Shown: piece by piece, positions 3,194 to 17,453 of the stretch
How positions within the stretch are numbered: position 1 is the stretch's first letter
Layout: each line of letters opens with the position of its first letter
Origin: a virus
Taxonomy: Duplodnaviria; Heunggongvirae; Uroviricota; Caudoviricetes
Virus record (IMG/VR): IMGVR_UViG_2648501787_000018
Direction: 5' to 3' (one strand)
DNA length: 25,110 nucleotides
Made by a program: the position numbers and the translations under genes
The notes under the pieces: model-generated
Database searches by the model: none
Told to the model about the DNA's origin: nothing
Seen by the model: the letters and a program-made list of their open reading frames with translations, nothing else

Positions 3194-4432
3194 TCAACCA
3201 TTTACTATTCTCAAACCTTTCTTACCACCGGATCTATTAATTACCCCTTTTCTCGCCTCATCAAAAAAATCTCCTACCCATTGCATCATAATTTTGCGTT
3301 GTTCTAAATAAGTAGTTCTATTATAAATATCTCTTATTTTATCACCACTTTTATGTGCTAATGCAGCCTCAATAACATCAGGGTTAAAACCCTCCTCATT
3401 TAAAAGCGTACTCCACATCGAACGAAAACCGTGTAACGTTACAATCCCTTTGAACTTGCTGGCAGCAATTGGGGTATTGATAGTATTCTTTCCCATAGGA
3501 GCATCTTTTGTTCTGGAGGAAAAAAATATATAACGCCCTCTTTTTATTTTCTGCATTGTTCTTAGGATTCTAATAGCCTGTGATGAGAGAGGCACAACAT
3601 GTTCACGATGGCATTTCATTTTATGCGCGGGGATAATCCACAAGCCAGAATCAAAATCAATCTCGGACCACTCTGCTTTAATCGCCTCACCTGGCCTGAC
3701 CATTGTCAATATCTGGAATAAAAGTGCATTGTGAGCTATTTGATACTTATGAGGCACACTATCCCACCAACTCAGAAATTCAGGCAATCTTTCAACAGGT
3801 AGTGCAGCTAATGATTTATTTTTCTTTCCTGTGAATGCAGTTTTTATCTTAAGTAATGGATTCGTTTTCAATGCTCCACAATTTACAGCGTAATTCATAA
3901 TTTCATTTAATCTTGATATTAATTTTTTTTGCAACGCATTCTTATCGGATACGGCATCCAGAGCATTAATAGCTACTGGCGCTGTAATTTTCTCTATGCT
4001 GTACTTACCAAAGAAAGGAACAAGATATTTGTATACTTCATATTCGATATTATACAGCGTAGGTTTCCGCAATTCCGATCCCTTTTTAAAAGCGATCCAT
4101 GCATTAGCAACAGCTTCAAATGTTTGTAGATTTTTTAGTGACATCTCAATTTTACGATTTTTCTTCTCTGTCACTGGATCAACTCCACGTGCAATCATTC
4201 GCCGAAGTTCATCACGTATTTCCCGTGCTTCCGCGAGTGAGAATTCAGGAAAACGCCCTATCGTGTATGTCTGCCGTTTCTTCGTTATCGGATGGCTATA
4301 ACGGAAACGCCACACTTTCCCACCAGCTTTACTCACATTCAGCAATAAACCGAACCCATCATAAACGGCATAGTCCTTTTCACGTGGTTTCATTCCCTTA
4401 ACTTCAGTCACGGTTAATGGCTTTACCGGCAT
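3194..4432 (-). CDS. int: Tyrosine site-specific integrase, P4/IntS-like
   Basis: 412 aa. N-terminal arm-binding region (KPREKDYAVYDGFGLLLNVSKAGGKVWRFRY) and C-terminal catalytic residues (HGFRSMWST ... IRDIYNRTTY) typical of P4-type integrases. Confidence 0.9.
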   Translation of the reverse strand: MPVKPLTVTEVKGMKPREKDYAVYDGFGLLLNVSKAGGKVWRFRYSHPITKKRQTYTIGRFPEFSLAEAREIRDELRRMIARGVDPVTEKKNRKIEMSLKNLQTFEAVANAWIAFKKGSELRKPTLYNIEYEVYKYLVPFFGKYSIEKITAPVAINALDAVSDKNALQKKLISRLNEIMNYAVNCGALKTNPLLKIKTAFTGKKNKSLAALPVERLPEFLSWWDSVPHKYQIAHNALLFQILTMVRPGEAIKAEWSEIDFDSGLWIIPAHKMKCHREHVVPLSSQAIRILRTMQKIKRGRYIFFSSRTKDAPMGKNTINTPIAASKFKGIVTLHGFRSMWSTLLNEEGFNPDVIEAALAHKSGDKIRDIYNRTTYLEQRKIMMQWVGDFFDEARKGVINRSGGKKGLRIVNG

Positions 4433-4593
4433 CTATCGCCCTCATTTTTTAGTCCGTCATGTAGTCCTTTCAAGTCGATAACAAGCGATAAACTAACTCA
4501 TTATCAAGTAAAGAGAGGAAACACAAAAAATCACAACTCATTGAAAAGACTACAAAACGACACCAGAACATAAAAACAGGTAAGAAATGTACC

Positions 4594-5589
4594 CTACATC
4601 CAGAATGACGCAATACGTGAGCGTCGGGGATCACCATAACGACTGCCATCCGCATTGATGGATTCACCATCCCGCAACCAGACCCCACGTCCGTTCAGCT
4701 CACGTTTTTGTTCAGGCATAATCCGTCCTGAACAGGAAGGACACTGAATATAAGCCGCCTCACTTGCCAGCACAGGATCGGCAATATCACGGAAACCAGC
4801 AACCACATCGCCGCAGGGCTGAAAATACTCACCACAGTGTGGGCAGGGCCAGTACCAGCGACGTCGATCGCCACGGTTATAGAGTGACAGTATCCCCGTG
4901 GTTGGTGGAGCCTCATGCGGTGAAGTCCGTCGCCATTTCACATCCTTCACATCCCTGCCGGGGGAACTCTCCACCAGCGTCATACCACTGGACATAAATG
5001 TGGTGGTACGTTTTGAGGCAAGAGAGAAGGCATCCCCCTCGCCATCAATATCTTCCGGAAAACGGTCATAATCCGTCAGCGCCACGCATTTATAATCTGA
5101 TGAGGACATGATATTGACTGACGGCCAGCCGATTTTCAGGTAGTTGCCAGCAAGGAATGTTCTGTCATAAACGTTGTTGTCATTTTTGTTCGGACTCAGG
5201 CGACTGACCACTTCCGGGCTGACGCGAAACGTTCTGGCAAGTCGTTTTTTGGAGTGTTCGCGGGCTTTTTCCTCCGTCATCTGAATGATCAGCATATCCG
5301 CAGGATCGCAAATCACGTTGTAAATCACCCAGCCGTCAATCAGGCCGATAGTCTTGCCGGTTCGTGCCGGACCAACAAATATCACTGCGTCGTATTCACG
5401 CGAGGCCAGGCAGTTCATCGGCTCAATAACATACGGTGCCACCAGCGGATCCCACGGGACTGAGTTCCCTGCCCCCATGGGCACCCGCATATACTGAGCA
5501 ACGGCATCAGCAACCCGCATTCGTCTCGGTGCGCGAAGGATATAACCTGAATCGGTTCGTGCTGCCTTTGCGGTTTCCTGATTCAGCAT
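4594..5589 (-). pseudogene. Terminase large subunit, GpA family, truncated to the N-terminal 331 codons
   Basis: Walker A-like GPARTGKT and zinc-finger region WPCPHCGEYFQP ... CPSCSG as in lambda gpA (about 640 aa). The frame ends at ...RIASFWM well before the nuclease domain, followed by AT-rich island sequence. Start overlaps the Nu1-like stop (TAATG). Confidence 0.65.
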
Positions 5590-8276: not shown

Positions 8277-9329
8277 TTATTTCCCCACCAGTTCACTTAC
8301 CTCTTTCACCGTCTGATTAAACCGCTCTGACTCAAGTTCAACACCTAACGCCCGACGCCCCAGCGCCATTGCTGCTTTTATTGTGGAACCGGATCCCATA
8401 AAGAAATCAGCAACCAGATCACCAGGGCGACTACTGGCATTGATTATTTGCCGGAGCATATCCGCCGGTTTCTCGCACGGATGTTTACCCGGGTAGAACT
8501 GAACGGGTTTATGCGTCCAGACATCGGTATAAGGCACGGAGACTGATACGGAGAAATAGCGCCGGAGAGATTTAAACTCATCCAGCAATTCAGAATATTT
8601 GCGATTCAGTGAATCATAAGATGCCACCAGCTGGTGGTGTGGTTGTTCCAGTTGTTGTTCCTGAAACTTCTCTGCCGCTATACGGGAAAACAGTGCCTGT
8701 AACTTCCGATAGTCAGCCTCATTCGGCAACTGCCACTGACTGGCACCAAACCAGTGGGAAACCATATTTTTCTTACCTGTGGCTTCGGCAATTTGTTTTG
8801 CCGTTATACCCAGTTCGGCACGAGCATCCCTGAAATACGATATCAGCGGTGCCATTATGTGCTGTTTGAGTTCCCTTTCTTTTGCTGCATAGCCGTCACT
8901 TTTGCCGCGATATGGCCCCTGGTAATGTTCAGCAAACAGAACGCGCTCTGTGGCAGGAAAATATGCGCGCAGACTTTCTTTATTACACCCATTCCAACGT
9001 CCGGACGGCTTCGCCCAGATGATATGGTTAAGCACGTTGAAACGTTCACGCATCATGATCTCAATATCAGATGCCAGGCGATGCCCACAGAACAGATAAA
9101 GGCTTCCGGCAGGTTTTAACACCCGCCAGAACTGGGCCAGACAGTGGTCCAGCCACTTAAGGTAATCTTCGTCCCCTTTCCACTGATTGTCCCAACCGTT
9201 GGGTTTCACCTTGAAGTACGGCGGATCGGTAACAATCAGGTCAATGGAATCATCAGGCAGGGACTGAATAAAATGCAGGCAATCAGCGTTGATTAAATCA
9301 ACACTGTTTATTTTTACAGTATTTTTCAT
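8277..9329 (-). CDS. DNA methyltransferase, beta-class amino-MTase (N6-adenine or N4-cytosine), orphan
   Basis: 350 aa; catalytic motif IV (IVTDPPYF) near the N-terminus and AdoMet motif I (ADFFMGSGST) near the C-terminus, the beta-class order. No restriction endonuclease gene adjacent. Confidence 0.8.
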   Translation of the reverse strand: MKNTVKINSVDLINADCLHFIQSLPDDSIDLIVTDPPYFKVKPNGWDNQWKGDEDYLKWLDHCLAQFWRVLKPAGSLYLFCGHRLASDIEIMMRERFNVLNHIIWAKPSGRWNGCNKESLRAYFPATERVLFAEHYQGPYRGKSDGYAAKERELKQHIMAPLISYFRDARAELGITAKQIAEATGKKNMVSHWFGASQWQLPNEADYRKLQALFSRIAAEKFQEQQLEQPHHQLVASYDSLNRKYSELLDEFKSLRRYFSVSVSVPYTDVWTHKPVQFYPGKHPCEKPADMLRQIINASSRPGDLVADFFMGSGSTIKAAMALGRRALGVELESERFNQTVKEVSELVGK

Positions 9330-14720: not shown

Positions 14721-15539
14721 TCACCCCCTGAATCCTACCGGGATCTGGCTGTAGTCCACATTGTCGTAACTGGCTTTGAAGTACGGGTCCTCGCGTCTGG
14801 CTGCAGATACCGCAGGAACTTCCCAGGATTCTTCGAAATGACGATCCGGACCAAAGAACGTGACAGCCTGTTTCACAAATTGTGTGCCGCTGTTACCCAT
14901 CGCAGATACCCAGCCCGCGTAGCGTTTCACACCTTCCAGCATGGTTTCGGGGTTTACCCCCTCATTCAAACGGGCTTTCCAGGCTTTGAAGGCTGCAGAT
15001 TTTGAATTGCCACCAGCACGTTTGGGATATACCAGCCATGCCTGCTCAAACTCCGGAGAGTATTCCGGTCGGTTTGAACGAACTCGCACAGACTCATCAG
15101 CAGATGCACCAACAGCTATTGGTTCATTGACTGGTTCTTTGACTGGTTCAAAAGAGTGACTGGTTCTGGGTGAATCTCCTGCACTACCCCCTGGTGCAAC
15201 TCCTGCACTACCTGGTGAATTTGCTGCACCAGATAGTGAATTATTTGCACTACCCCCTAGTGAATCTCCTGCACCATCCAGATGAAGGAGATAGATATTA
15301 CTTGAGTTACCTTTTTCACCTTTCCGGGTGACTTTTTTTACCAGCCCGGACTCACAAAGGGCCGCAATATGATTCATCACAGAACGTTTGCTAATCTCGC
15401 ACTGGTCAGCAATATGCTGGTAGCTGGGCCAGCACTCCCCCTGATCGCTGGCATTATCAGCCAGCTTGATCAGAACCAGTTTTCGCAATGGATTTCCCAC
15501 TCGAATTTTCATCGCTTTAACCATCAGCTCCATACTCAT
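14721..15539 (-). CDS. Replication initiator (O-like; N-terminal wHTH, Gly/Ser-rich linker, YfdO-type C-terminus)
   Basis: 272 aa; HTH in first 70 aa (WPSYQHIADQCEISKRSVMNHIAALCESGLV); coding region contains the iteron array; C-terminal EFEQAWLVYPKR...FKAWKARL resembles phage replication proteins. Start overlaps upstream stop (ATGA). Confidence 0.7.
   Translation of the reverse strand: MSMELMVKAMKIRVGNPLRKLVLIKLADNASDQGECWPSYQHIADQCEISKRSVMNHIAALCESGLVKKVTRKGEKGNSSNIYLLHLDGAGDSLGGSANNSLSGAANSPGSAGVAPGGSAGDSPRTSHSFEPVKEPVNEPIAVGASADESVRVRSNRPEYSPEFEQAWLVYPKRAGGNSKSAAFKAWKARLNEGVNPETMLEGVKRYAGWVSAMGNSGTQFVKQAVTFFGPDRHFEESWEVPAVSAARREDPYFKASYDNVDYSQIPVGFRG
15128..15274. repeat. Replication-origin iterons inside the initiator gene
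   Basis: Five copies of GTGAAT(C/T)T(C/G)CTGCAC-like 15-mers at 15170, 15194, 15215, 15236, 15260 (spacing 21-24 bp), preceded by three copies of TGACTGGTTC (15128-15166). Confidence 0.6.
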
Positions 15540-15760
15540 GCAGCACCTCCGAGATGCTTCATGTTTTTTCCGGAGCGAAAGGCTATAAGCGGCATACTGA
15601 CGCGGTAATTACGGCCCAGCGGTTCACAAACCACCTTCTGACATTCACGGTCAACCAGGCTAACACGTAGAACATGCCCTGCAGGCGTGGTGTACCACTG
15701 ACCCGGACGAGGACAACGGAAAGTCTGATTGGTAAAACGTTTGAAAATATTCCGGATCAT
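15536..15760 (-). CDS. Hypothetical small protein (74 aa)
   Basis: Track ORF; both ends overlap neighbours in ATGA fashion, consistent with a real co-translated gene. No motif recognised. Confidence 0.4.
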   Translation of the reverse strand: MIRNIFKRFTNQTFRCPRPGQWYTTPAGHVLRVSLVDRECQKVVCEPLGRNYRVSMPLIAFRSGKNMKHLGGAA

Positions 15761-16302
15761 TTGCGCCCCCTTACCTCTGAAGAGTTCAGCGACGAATGAA
15801 TAAGACGGGCAAGAAATGCCGCATCGTTAATTCGGTCATACAGACTTACAGCCAGCGGTGATTCAGCTTTTTCCAGCATGGGATAAAGCTGCTGCAACCA
15901 GACCTGATGAATTGATGAAATGTAGGAATAGAGAACGCTGGCGTTATGTGCAACGTCGCTCGGTACAGAGGGCTTTGAAAGCTGTTTCTCCATCTGGTTA
16001 AAGGCATTGATGTATGCCTCTTTGAACTGGGCAGCACGTTTACCCGTGAAACCCATAGCAAGAAACGCAAAGCCATCGCGGGTTATTTGATAGCAAGGTA
16101 GTTTGCGGCCTGAAGCGTCGATATAACCACTTAACACAAAATTGTGTTCAGCAAATTCAGCGGAGCATTCAAGGTTTCGAATTCTATCTAAAACCCGCTC
16201 ATGCCGTTTAGTAAAGTAGTTAGCAACTGCAAGAGATGTAGTGACAGCACGACCATTGATGATCGTGATTTCAGGGTGAACAAAGGTTGGGATCGTAGCC
16301 AT
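15757..16302 (-). CDS. Rha-family phage regulatory protein (about 181 aa); the same frame stays open upstream to 16905
   Basis: ITIINGRAVTTSLAVANYFTKRHERVLDRIRNL ... YQITRDGFAFLAMGFTGKRAAQFKEAYINAFNQME matches the Rha domain. ATG at 16302-16300 has GAGG 8 nt upstream. The track ORF (382 aa) adds 201 upstream codons of atypical composition. Confidence 0.7.
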   Translation of the reverse strand: MATIPTFVHPEITIINGRAVTTSLAVANYFTKRHERVLDRIRNLECSAEFAEHNFVLSGYIDASGRKLPCYQITRDGFAFLAMGFTGKRAAQFKEAYINAFNQMEKQLSKPSVPSDVAHNASVLYSYISSIHQVWLQQLYPMLEKAESPLAVSLYDRINDAAFLARLIHSSLNSSEVRGRK

Positions 16303-16901
16303 AATGGCAGCCTCGGTAGCAAGCTTAAAAAACTCACCACATAAGACGCCAATCATAGAGGTGGTGAGACGTACAGAGTTGGCGTTACCGGCGGCTACCC
16401 TTACCGGCGCATCTTGCGATGCCCCTGTACGCCCCACCATAATTTGGGCGTGACAAAATAATGCGTACAAAAAAACCGCATCTACGCGGTTGTACGCGGT
16501 AGCCTTCTCCAGGACGCCAATCCCGGCACCCGCTTTATAAGGTGCCTGAACAGTGTAACGTCCCGGAATGGCAGAATCAATGTGCTGGTGGTCCTTCACA
16601 CTCAACAAAATCACGCCTGAATTTCCACAAAGGACTAAAGCACTCATGCGGGTAGTCTTTGCGAAGATAGATAACGCGCTGTGTTTCTGGCTCCCAACGA
16701 ATAACATGGACATAAAGCCCTCTTCCGTCACGAAACCAGCGGTTAAGTTCCTGCACAACTCGCCCCCCACAGTCAGGTAAAGTTCTCTGTGGTTACTTAC
16801 AGCCAGGTGATTTGGTAATCTGCATTCATGCCGTAACAACAGGTGTTCAGCGACACTGACCACCAGCTGTTGCGACAAACGGTTATTTGCCGTTAAACTG
16901 T

Positions 16902-17453
16902 TCATGCGTTAGTTTCTCCACAGACACAAAACGCCACGACGCCCGGAGCTGCACACTCGCGGGCGTCACTCTTTTCTGGAGCGCAGAAGATTTTGTAGAC
17001 CAGTGCTGCATGTTCCTGGAGCTTCGAAATTGACAGATACAACTCATCATTAATTGCTGTCTGCTCGTGTGGCTCCACGACCCCATCTTCGATTGCCGAA
17101 CGAATCTGCTTTGAGTAATTCCCGATCTGTTCGATGACTTCCAGCAGGCGCTGGTTTATATCGGCGTTCTCTACTTCCTCAATTTCAGGAAGCGATACGA
17201 ACACCCCACCAGCAGACTGTGCGACAGCATCCGCAATGTAGTGAGTGCCAGCCGCGCGCTGTAAAACCATTGCCCATCCCAGCGGGAAAATCTGATCGCC
17301 ATCTGCACGAAGGCGGTTGAATAAAGCGTTCTCTGTTACATCCAGCCAGTCAGCAGCTTCAGCGTAACCCCCAGGCAATGCCGCGATAGTTTTTCTGACA
17401 GCTTTCACGTGCCACTCAGGTTGTTTTTCCACTTTCCAGTGATGCTTACCCAC
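16902..17453 (-). CDS. CII-like phage regulatory protein (tentative, Phage_CP76-like)
   Basis: 183 aa, directly downstream of the cro-like gene in the cII position; GTG start with AGGAGG 6 nt upstream. Family from memory, moderate certainty. Confidence 0.55.
   Translation of the reverse strand: MGKHHWKVEKQPEWHVKAVRKTIAALPGGYAEAADWLDVTENALFNRLRADGDQIFPLGWAMVLQRAAGTHYIADAVAQSAGGVFVSLPEIEEVENADINQRLLEVIEQIGNYSKQIRSAIEDGVVEPHEQTAINDELYLSISKLQEHAALVYKIFCAPEKSDARECAAPGVVAFCVCGETNA

Follow-up and report, generated by a model that had tools for sequence, protein, structure and literature searches.

A long open frame upstream of a prophage Rha gene overlies a probable P4-type RNA immunity cassette

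In the 25,110-nucleotide stretch of viral DNA recorded as IMGVR_UViG_2648501787_000018 (the window), a Rha-family phage regulatory protein is encoded at the end of a minus-strand reading frame that stays open for a further 201 codons on its 5′ side. We are nearly certain that this upstream part is an RNA cassette, comprising the small RNA (sRNA) IsrK and a C4-type antisense RNA, and that its 201 codons do not form a protein domain. The arrangement as a whole is best read as an RNA immunity cassette of the P4 type that controls the Rha-family regulator and is embedded in a nested frame like that of P4 eta and kil, the long frame being translated to override immunity; we give this reading a probability of roughly 60%. 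That the full long frame is functionally translated we hold to be slightly better than an even bet. An earlier note, made from the letters of the sequence, had noticed the open stretch and taken it for either an unusually extended Rha protein or a degraded or recoded gene.

Results

The frame is a single stop-free open reading frame (ORF) on the minus strand, running from an ATG at 16905 to a TGA at 15757 and encoding 382 aa (Table 1). Several anatomical observations in the earlier note hold: the frame is free of stops for 201 codons 5′ of the Rha ATG, its own ATG overlaps the stop of a CII-like gene (in the context GCATGA), and the internal Rha ATG at 16302 is preceded by a ribosome-binding site. 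The upstream part is, as described there, rich in A, L, V, S and G (49% of the first 201 residues) and poor in the charged residues D, E, K and R (15%). Given the base composition, an open run of this length has a probability of 5e-5; only one of 20,000 shuffles lacked a stop, and the same 603 nt contain 15 and 9 stops when read in the other two frames, so the open stretch is real and beyond chance. Among relatives scored for openness 5′ of the Rha ATG, 71 of 82 loci have 201–219 open codons and three have 448.

The long ORF is 99.7% identical to one in phage cdtI and the wider window resembles phages of the mEp460 type, a likeness by which the window is a lambdoid prophage of the cdtI/mEp460 type. 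The interval was found in 1249 of 5426 complete E. coli genomes (about a quarter), at 80% or more of full length in 566, and occurs also in many Shiga toxin (Stx)-converting phages. Public records label the whole ORF as a single 'Rha family phage regulatory protein', 'putative antirepressor' or 'ash family', and annotate neither RNA gene. Along the minus strand from 5′ to 3′, the interval instead comprises an ATGA-coupled start, a spacer, a DUF4222 gene, a putative promoter, IsrK with its terminator, C4, a leader with the a2 and b2 sites, and the rha ATG. The two RNA genes, the putative promoter and the terminator had gone unmentioned in the earlier note.

Table 1. Features of the Rha interval, in order along the minus strand.
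Feature	Coordinates	Strand	Details and basis
CII/YmfL-like ORF, upstream partner	16902-17453	(-)	Matches Pfam Phage_CP76 and NCBIfam YmfL
ATGA overlap, translational-coupling junction	16902..16905	(-)	Long-frame ATG 16905-16903 over YmfL/CII-like TGA 16904-16902; sequence
Long nested reading frame, analogue of P4 eta	15757..16905	(-)	382 codons; ORF listing, frame conservation in relatives
Segment A of long frame	16757..16901	(-)	pN/pS 0.44, 0.88, 0.51 in three frames
DUF4222 gene	16577..16756	(-)	59 aa, GTG start, +2 frame relative to long ORF; Pfam PF13973 E 9.5e-14 (51.1 bits vs cut-off 27), phrog_1343 E 1e-36
Putative internal promoter PisrK, analogue of P4 PLE	16552..16580	(-)	TTGATT (16580-16575), 17 nt, TACACT (16557-16552), 7 nt before proposed +1 at 16545; read from sequence
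IsrK sRNA (equivalent of P4 SeqA, P1 a1/b1 target region)	16469..16545	(-)	Rfam RF01394, 60.0 bits vs gathering score 50
IsrK target a1	16520-16514	(-)	TTGGCGT
IsrK target b1	16504-16498	(-)	GGCTACC
Intrinsic terminator, IsrK 3′ end	16491-16469	(-)	7-bp stem (4 GC) and T7 run; terminator scan
C4/CI-type antisense RNA (equivalent of STnc1160 and orf45 region of Gifsy-1)	16357..16444	(-)	Rfam RF01695 (clan CL00128), 68.4 bits vs gathering score 45
orf45-type AUG	16440-16438	(-)	In C4
C4 b′ loop	16399-16393	(-)	GGTAGCC
C4 a′ tail	16385-16379	(-)	ACGCCAA
Leader with downstream C4 targets	16303..16356	(-)	Complementarity to C4
Target a2	16352-16346	(-)	TTGGCGT
Target b2	16320-16315	(-)	GCTACC, abutting the Shine-Dalgarno sequence
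rha Shine-Dalgarno sequence	16314-16311	(-)	GAGG
Short Rha-family regulator; position of P4 Kil, Gifsy-1 AnrP, P1 Icd/Ant	15757..16302	(-)	181 aa; Pfam PF09669 E 6e-30 (104 bits vs 29.9), TIGR02681 E 1e-29 (102.8 bits vs 45.95)
Rha domain	about 15985-16242	(-)	aa 222-307 of long ORF

Two RNA genes lie in tandem beneath the upstream codons. The IsrK match covers the full length of its model (positions 1-77 of 77). Matches at or above the Rfam gathering score were obtained in the window and in all related loci checked, IsrK and C4 always standing in tandem. The putative promoter in front of IsrK agrees with the sigma-70 consensus at 8 of 12 positions, just under the threshold of the scanner and hence unlisted by it; the segment is near-invariant among relatives (nucleotide diversity, pi, 0.03). 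The TGA stop of the DUF4222 gene (16579-16577) falls within the -35 hexamer of this putative promoter.

The C4 RNA is complementary to sites on both sides of it. In the window its a′ tail can pair over 7 nt with each of a1 and a2, and its b′ loop over 7 nt with b1 and 6 nt with b2. Across 28 distinct cassettes, the helices of the free C4 fold are 100% paired and include eight compensatory pairs, changed on both sides, while the long-range pairing of a1/b1 in IsrK with a′/b′ in C4 (helices 2 and 3) includes 13. Taking the IsrK-C4 structure as a whole, compensatory changes occur in 22 of 59 consensus pairs, and 98% of cells are paired, compared with about 40% in slid controls. Among 65 cassettes we counted 32 different (b′, a′) alleles. 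The b′ loop is complementary to its cognate b2 over a mean of 8.5 nt, against 4.0 nt for non-cognate combinations, and the a′ tail can typically pair over 7 nt with a1 as well as with a2 (6-8 nt in all alleles but one).

The a′ and b′ sites reassort independently (in L008, L010, L203 and other loci), the b′ sequence TCTCCGTTGACG occurring with three different a′ tails. This suggests recombination inside the cassette that creates new immunity types. In some loci (L010 891-1795, L026, L100, L113, L114, L203 and L131 9739-11106), two or three IsrK-C4-(Ash/Rha) cassettes follow one another at intervals of about 656 nt, with every downstream ORF ATGA-coupled to the frame of the next cassette. Where the tandem copies were compared (L010, L100, L131 and L203), their a′/b′ specificity alleles differ between copies.

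To locate selection, we aligned 59 distinct upstream regions drawn from 80 IMG/VR loci with genes for close homologues of Rha. Read in the DUF4222 frame, the DUF4222 segment has a ratio of nonsynonymous to synonymous polymorphism (pN/pS) of 0.13; read in the long frame, it has one of 2.46. The 39 variant states in this segment include 24 that are synonymous for DUF4222 and nonsynonymous for the long frame, and two of the reverse kind; counted in the frame of DUF4222 itself, 24 are synonymous and 15 nonsynonymous. On these substitution patterns the protein under purifying selection here is DUF4222, not the long frame. The gene is annotated as a coding sequence in three RefSeq genomes (L003, L004 and L009).

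From IsrK through the leader, no frame stands out. The pN/pS is 0.93 in the long frame and 0.92 in each of the others, and neither codon periodicity nor an excess of third-position changes was found in this part, despite a diversity of 0.22-0.45. As judged from base-pair covariation and the three-way complementarity kept through 32 alleles, selection here is on the RNAs, and the amino-acid sequence is not conserved. The comparative alignment that the earlier note had proposed thus turned up both outcomes it had named as counting against its own reading: a gene in a different frame in the upstream part, and no coding-type conservation of the 201 residues (pN/pS 2.46 over DUF4222 and 0.93 over the RNA part). 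Homology to the Rha product starts where the short protein does: in 79 of 80 loci the tblastn matches of Rha begin at its residue 1, the exception, L052, being cut by the contig end.

The frame itself is nonetheless kept. To obtain a sample unbiased by ORFs, we gathered C4-like sequences by DNA pattern, which gave 99 distinct hits and 65 distinct full cassettes. The frame of the C4 AUG is open across IsrK and C4 to the next gene in 66% of the 99 hits, whereas the other frames are open in 10% and 4%. Roughly a quarter of the hits sit in no open frame, those outside the nested architecture carrying stops here, so openness is not a mere consequence of the C4 consensus. Over the 65 cassettes there are 0.017 stops per cassette in the long frame against 2.1 and 4.1 in the others. 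In 57 of them, the distance between the IsrK start and the C4 AUG and that between this AUG and the downstream ATG are both divisible by 3. In the hypervariable spacer and leader, all of 11 quasi-independent alleles are stop-free, with a chance in shuffles of 0.16-0.43 each and a product of 1.4e-7.

The frame also stays open 5′ of the C4 AUG in 98% of sequences, where the other frames do so in 39% and 3.5%, and transcripts from the internal promoter would have no plausible start codon in that part. The first ATG of the cassette-spanning frame stands in an ATGA context in 46 of 62 distinct cassettes, behind several different, unrelated upstream genes. Read across these alignments, the frame is conserved beyond chance and in register, though its amino-acid sequence is not. 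The extended Rha of the earlier note survives to this extent: its in-frame continuity is conserved, and the soluble N-terminal domain that it would imply is not borne out (pN/pS 2.46 and 0.93). Because the continuity is conserved and P4 eta/kil offers an experimentally studied precedent, an N-terminally extended product is plausibly made, and its extension plausibly matters as ribosome transit rather than as a domain.

A 738-nt (246-codon) insertion separates DUF4222 from the internal promoter in three loci (L069 555-1218 on the minus strand, L061 and L089), where the long frame nevertheless stays open, over 448 codons. The insertion carries an antisense pair of genes of 102 and 121 aa, read as candidates for a HigB/RelE-like toxin and a helix-turn-helix (HTH) antitoxin. 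The ATG of the short Rha is replaced by ATA in L061.

Comparison with known systems

The satellite P4 carries IsrK/SeqA-like and C4/CI-like RNAs in the same order and on the same strand as the window, a lambdoid prophage, with one long frame across both. We located the IsrK-like seqA at 8692-8615 and the C4-like cI at 8507-8420 of P4, on the minus strand with a 199-codon frame (8767-8168) whose ATG at 8767 overlaps the ORF88 stop (ATGA) and whose in-frame internal ATG at 8365 opens a 65-aa product; we identified these two products with eta (ORF199) and kil. The P4 immunity region is laid out as PLE - seqA - cI (CI RNA) - seqC with eta and kil nested in it (Forti et al. 1999 via PMC10111431). 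The same article relays from Forti et al. 1999 that Kil is a truncated form of Eta, that eta is translated and functional, and that translation of the long gene makes transcripts from the upstream promoter insensitive to immunity (PMC10111431).

The correspondence between P4 and the window extends to detail. The C4 AUG lies 138 nt from the downstream ATG in both (8503-8365 in P4, 16440-16302 in the window), the junction motif joining Shine-Dalgarno sequence and ATG at the internal in-frame start, GAGGCTGCCATYATG, is shared, and in P4 too the b′ loop can pair with a site that is joined directly to the Shine-Dalgarno sequence of the downstream gene. Both long products match Pfam Phage_ASH, of which the P4 Eta protein (199 aa) is a strong member, or archetype, over aa 22-146, mapping onto seqA, CI and leader. 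We consider it very probable that the nested layouts are homologous.

The two differ in what surrounds this core. The short product is a 181-aa Rha-family regulator in the window and not a homologue of the 65-aa Kil of P4, BLASTP similarity fading about 15 residues past the shared start. The IsrK-C4 spacer measures 24 nt in the window and about 107 nt in P4, and the window IsrK has an intrinsic terminator of its own, unlike that of P4. From coupled start to promoter the distance is 360 nt in the window and 75 nt in P4, the extra 300 nt or so holding the out-of-frame DUF4222 gene. The upstream partner is a CII/YmfL-like gene in the window and an AlpA/Vis homologue in P4.

In isrK-orf45-anrP of the Salmonella prophage Gifsy-1, the short IsrK opens a read-through mRNA in trans (Hershko-Shalev et al. 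2016, PMC4825925), and translation from the AUG at the C4 5′ end, the mapped first start of orf45, is needed for expression of anrP (PMC4825925). Gifsy-1 shares with the window a lambdoid prophage setting, a promoter, IsrK with a terminator, a C4-like RNA (STnc1160) and a lytic-switch regulator. Its promoter, TTGACA-17-TATATT, occupies the position of the putative PisrK, and the first start of orf45 is the same AUG codon as at the 5′ end of the window C4. The covarying long-range helix between IsrK and C4 corresponds to the inactive 'structure A' of Hershko-Shalev et al., whose G28/G31 mutations lie in the a1 site. In Gifsy-1 the C4 AUG lies 134 nt before the downstream gene, out of frame and with an AUGA stop-start overlap, whereas the 138 nt of the window are in frame and without a stop. 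The Gifsy-1 cassette also stands in the late region, after antQ, uncoupled to any upstream ORF. Homology between the window Rha and the AnrP of Gifsy-1 was not detected in the comparison.

The immI region of P1 and P7 reads c4 - icd - ant. The C4 RNA is flanked there by a1/b1 upstream and a2/b2 downstream, and the first gene after it has b2 at its ribosome-binding site. C4 controls the antirepressor there, and its specificity alleles give heteroimmunity. The window likewise has C4 between two target pairs and b2 at a ribosome-binding site, that of rha; P1 differs in the small Icd ORF between C4 and ant and in being a plasmid prophage. Rfam RF03163 models the a1/b1 targets and overlaps IsrK in Gifsy-1. 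The C4 antisense RNA of P1/P7 immI is due to Citron & Schuster, as cited in PMC8546580, and IsrK-C4 systems in lambdoid prophages were noted earlier by Barquist et al. (PMC3632133). In the GenBank record of SfV, the homologous ORF is labelled 'immunity region'; a look through the literature on 'ash' in P4 and on SfV orf37 yielded nothing useful beyond that label.

Discussion

The experiments in P4, Gifsy-1 and P1, together with the anatomy of the window, suggest how such a cassette would work. In the lysogen, the internal promoter would yield IsrK and some read-through RNA, which would be processed to C4. By pairing with a1/b1 of IsrK and a2/b2 of the leader, C4 would leave rha untranslated or its transcript terminated. 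When an early (PR-type) promoter fires, ribosomes ending the YmfL/CII-like gene would restart at the ATG at 16905, a coupling that the overlap suggests, and would then translate the long frame through the promoter, the terminator, the C4 gene and the target sites. Their transit would block the RNA structures, C4 pairing and polarity, so that these transcripts would escape immunity and allow Rha and the replication genes further downstream to be expressed. The 201 upstream codons would thus serve as an open ribosome track and not as an amino-acid sequence. In its fullest form, this proposal is a sequence-independent track across a promoter, a terminator, two RNA genes, DUF4222 and sometimes a 246-codon insertion, its sole job being to override RNA immunity on early transcripts; we regard that as a tentative idea, somewhat short of even odds.

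Several points weigh against the P4-type reading as a whole. In Gifsy-1, the only lambdoid case tested, the leader ORF begins at the C4 AUG rather than 5′ of IsrK and does not share the frame of anrP. An intrinsic terminator, with its 7-bp stem and U7 run, and an independently selected gene in another frame are awkward passengers for a continuously translated frame. Over the DUF4222 segment alone, stop avoidance is not significant (P = 0.2), and in segment A none of the three frames gives a convincing coding signal by pN/pS. The product of 1.4e-7 for the spacer and leader was obtained from alleles that are not fully independent and from shuffles that disregard RNA constraints. The window C4 itself scores 68 bits compared with 79-84 (about 80) in related lambdoid loci, and its b′:b2 pairing spans only 6 nt where 8-10 are typical; this may mean that control is weaker or that the allele has partly decayed. 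Our analysis predicts that the long frame is translated, that the internal promoter is active and C4 processed, and that the Rha protein acts as an antirepressor.

The strongest competitor, though an unlikely one, is that only a leader of the orf45 type is translated. As in Gifsy-1, ribosomes would start at the C4 AUG at 16440 on read-through transcripts of the internal promoter once IsrK opens the structure; running in frame into Rha they would make a 227-aa product, and the 155 codons further upstream would be irrelevant. The AUG is invariant (TTATGG), its counterpart is the mapped orf45 start required for anrP expression, and the frame from it to the downstream ATG is stop-free in all 41 distinct sequences. 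Such a leader leaves unaccounted the openness of the frame 5′ of the AUG, through IsrK and spacer, where besides the excess over the other frames (98% vs 39% and 3.5%) 11 of 12 alleles are stop-free, with a product of about 2e-4. Nor does it explain why the frame usually begins at an ATGA junction 5′ of the promoter, which transcripts from the internal promoter lack. The orf45-type mechanism may operate alongside the P4-type override, not instead of it.

We also think it rather improbable that the long frame is an annotation artefact, never translated and open as a by-product of GC-rich RNA conservation and of the codon constraints of DUF4222, so that the real parts would be DUF4222, the two RNAs and the 181-aa Rha. 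Over all 201 codons the pN/pS is about 1 or more and codon periodicity is absent, a terminator and a promoter lie inside the ORF, and the openness of the DUF4222 segment is compatible with chance. Another frame, moreover, is also stop-free from isrK to the rha ATG in 5 of 23 relatives. A by-product of this kind does not sit well with the stop-free spacer and leader of 11 diverged alleles, with spacings in multiples of 3 in most cassettes, or with ATGA-coupled starts that recur behind several unrelated upstream contexts. C4-like RNAs outside the nested architecture do have stops in the long frame, and the homologous frame of P4, eta, is reported to be translated and functional in the account cited above (PMC10111431).

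Public annotation and Pfam imply a true two-domain protein, with a folded N-terminal 'YmfM/Ash' domain fused to Rha, which we find very improbable. Phage_ASH (PF10554) does match aa 117-211 of the long frame (nt 16557-16273; 54.1 bits vs 26, E 2.5e-14), and both PGAP and the cdtI record treat the whole ORF as one protein. The match, however, exactly overlies IsrK, C4 and the leader, as every 'ash family' coding sequence examined overlies an IsrK-C4 pair, and purifying selection at the protein level was not found in this segment (pN/pS 0.93, and 0.92 in the other two frames). Phage_ASH, or the 'ash family', is on these coincidences better described as the translation of the RNA cassette than as a folded domain. 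The composition of the upstream part is likewise atypical of a soluble domain.

The YmfM side of that protein fares no better. The first 100 codons or so are homologous to YmfM of the E. coli K-12 element e14, whose annotation as a 'cell division inhibitor' goes back to work in which the cloned ORF was overexpressed. The e14 element shares the ymfK-ymfT-ymfL module, the ATGA-coupled start (MNSLT...) and the nested out-of-frame DUF4222 ORF; there the frame, ymfM, ends after 112 codons, and IsrK, C4 and the downstream gene are lost. A scan of the e14 region for IsrK and C4 in Rfam gave no match even at E 0.1. In e14 (L092), ymfM at 4323-4681 overlaps the DUF4222 ORF at 4502-4681. The YmfM-like parts of the window and of e14 share 33% identity, while the nested DUF4222 ORFs are roughly 60% identical by eye, and it is on the DUF4222 frame that selection over the YmfM-like part falls. 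Since the overexpression paper left the alternative frame untested, the filamentation phenotype of YmfM could belong to DUF4222.

To a degraded or recoded gene, either a pseudogene remnant or a programmed-frameshift site as the odd composition and the overlapping ORF might hint, we give next to no credence: both RNA genes exceed their gathering thresholds with compensatory covariation, all elements are intact and covarying in an interval present in 1249 complete genomes, and a frameshift would connect nothing because the DUF4222 frame stops 32 nt before IsrK.

If the P4-type cassette is correctly read, it would reveal a second, RNA-based layer of immunity with at least 32 specificity alleles, gating an antirepressor-type regulator beside the CI/Cro switch. 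Such a layer would bear on heteroimmunity, on cross-talk between prophages and on SOS-independent induction of toxin-converting phages. The main value of the analysis lies in correcting the annotation and in a clear, natural example of a reading frame that is conserved when its amino-acid sequence is not, which matters to gene finders and protein-family databases. Were the ribosome track also true, the 'Ash' family of Pfam and NCBI would not be a protein domain, and expression of the antirepressor would be under this switch in a large proportion of lambdoid prophages, Stx-converting ones included. A corollary would be that the phenotype of the K-12 'cell division inhibitor YmfM' might be that of the nested DUF4222 protein.

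Downstream of Rha, a 74-aa ORF (15536-15760, minus strand; phrog_1153, without a Pfam match) is ATGA-coupled to the Rha stop and resembles, by eye, a small DUF4222-like protein. Next comes a replication-type gene (HTH_36/DnaD_N), whose start likewise overlaps the stop before it. In the closest E. coli chromosome (L001 3173-4149), which is 99.9% identical here, an insertion of the IS21 family truncates the replication gene just downstream, and that prophage copy is therefore probably defective.

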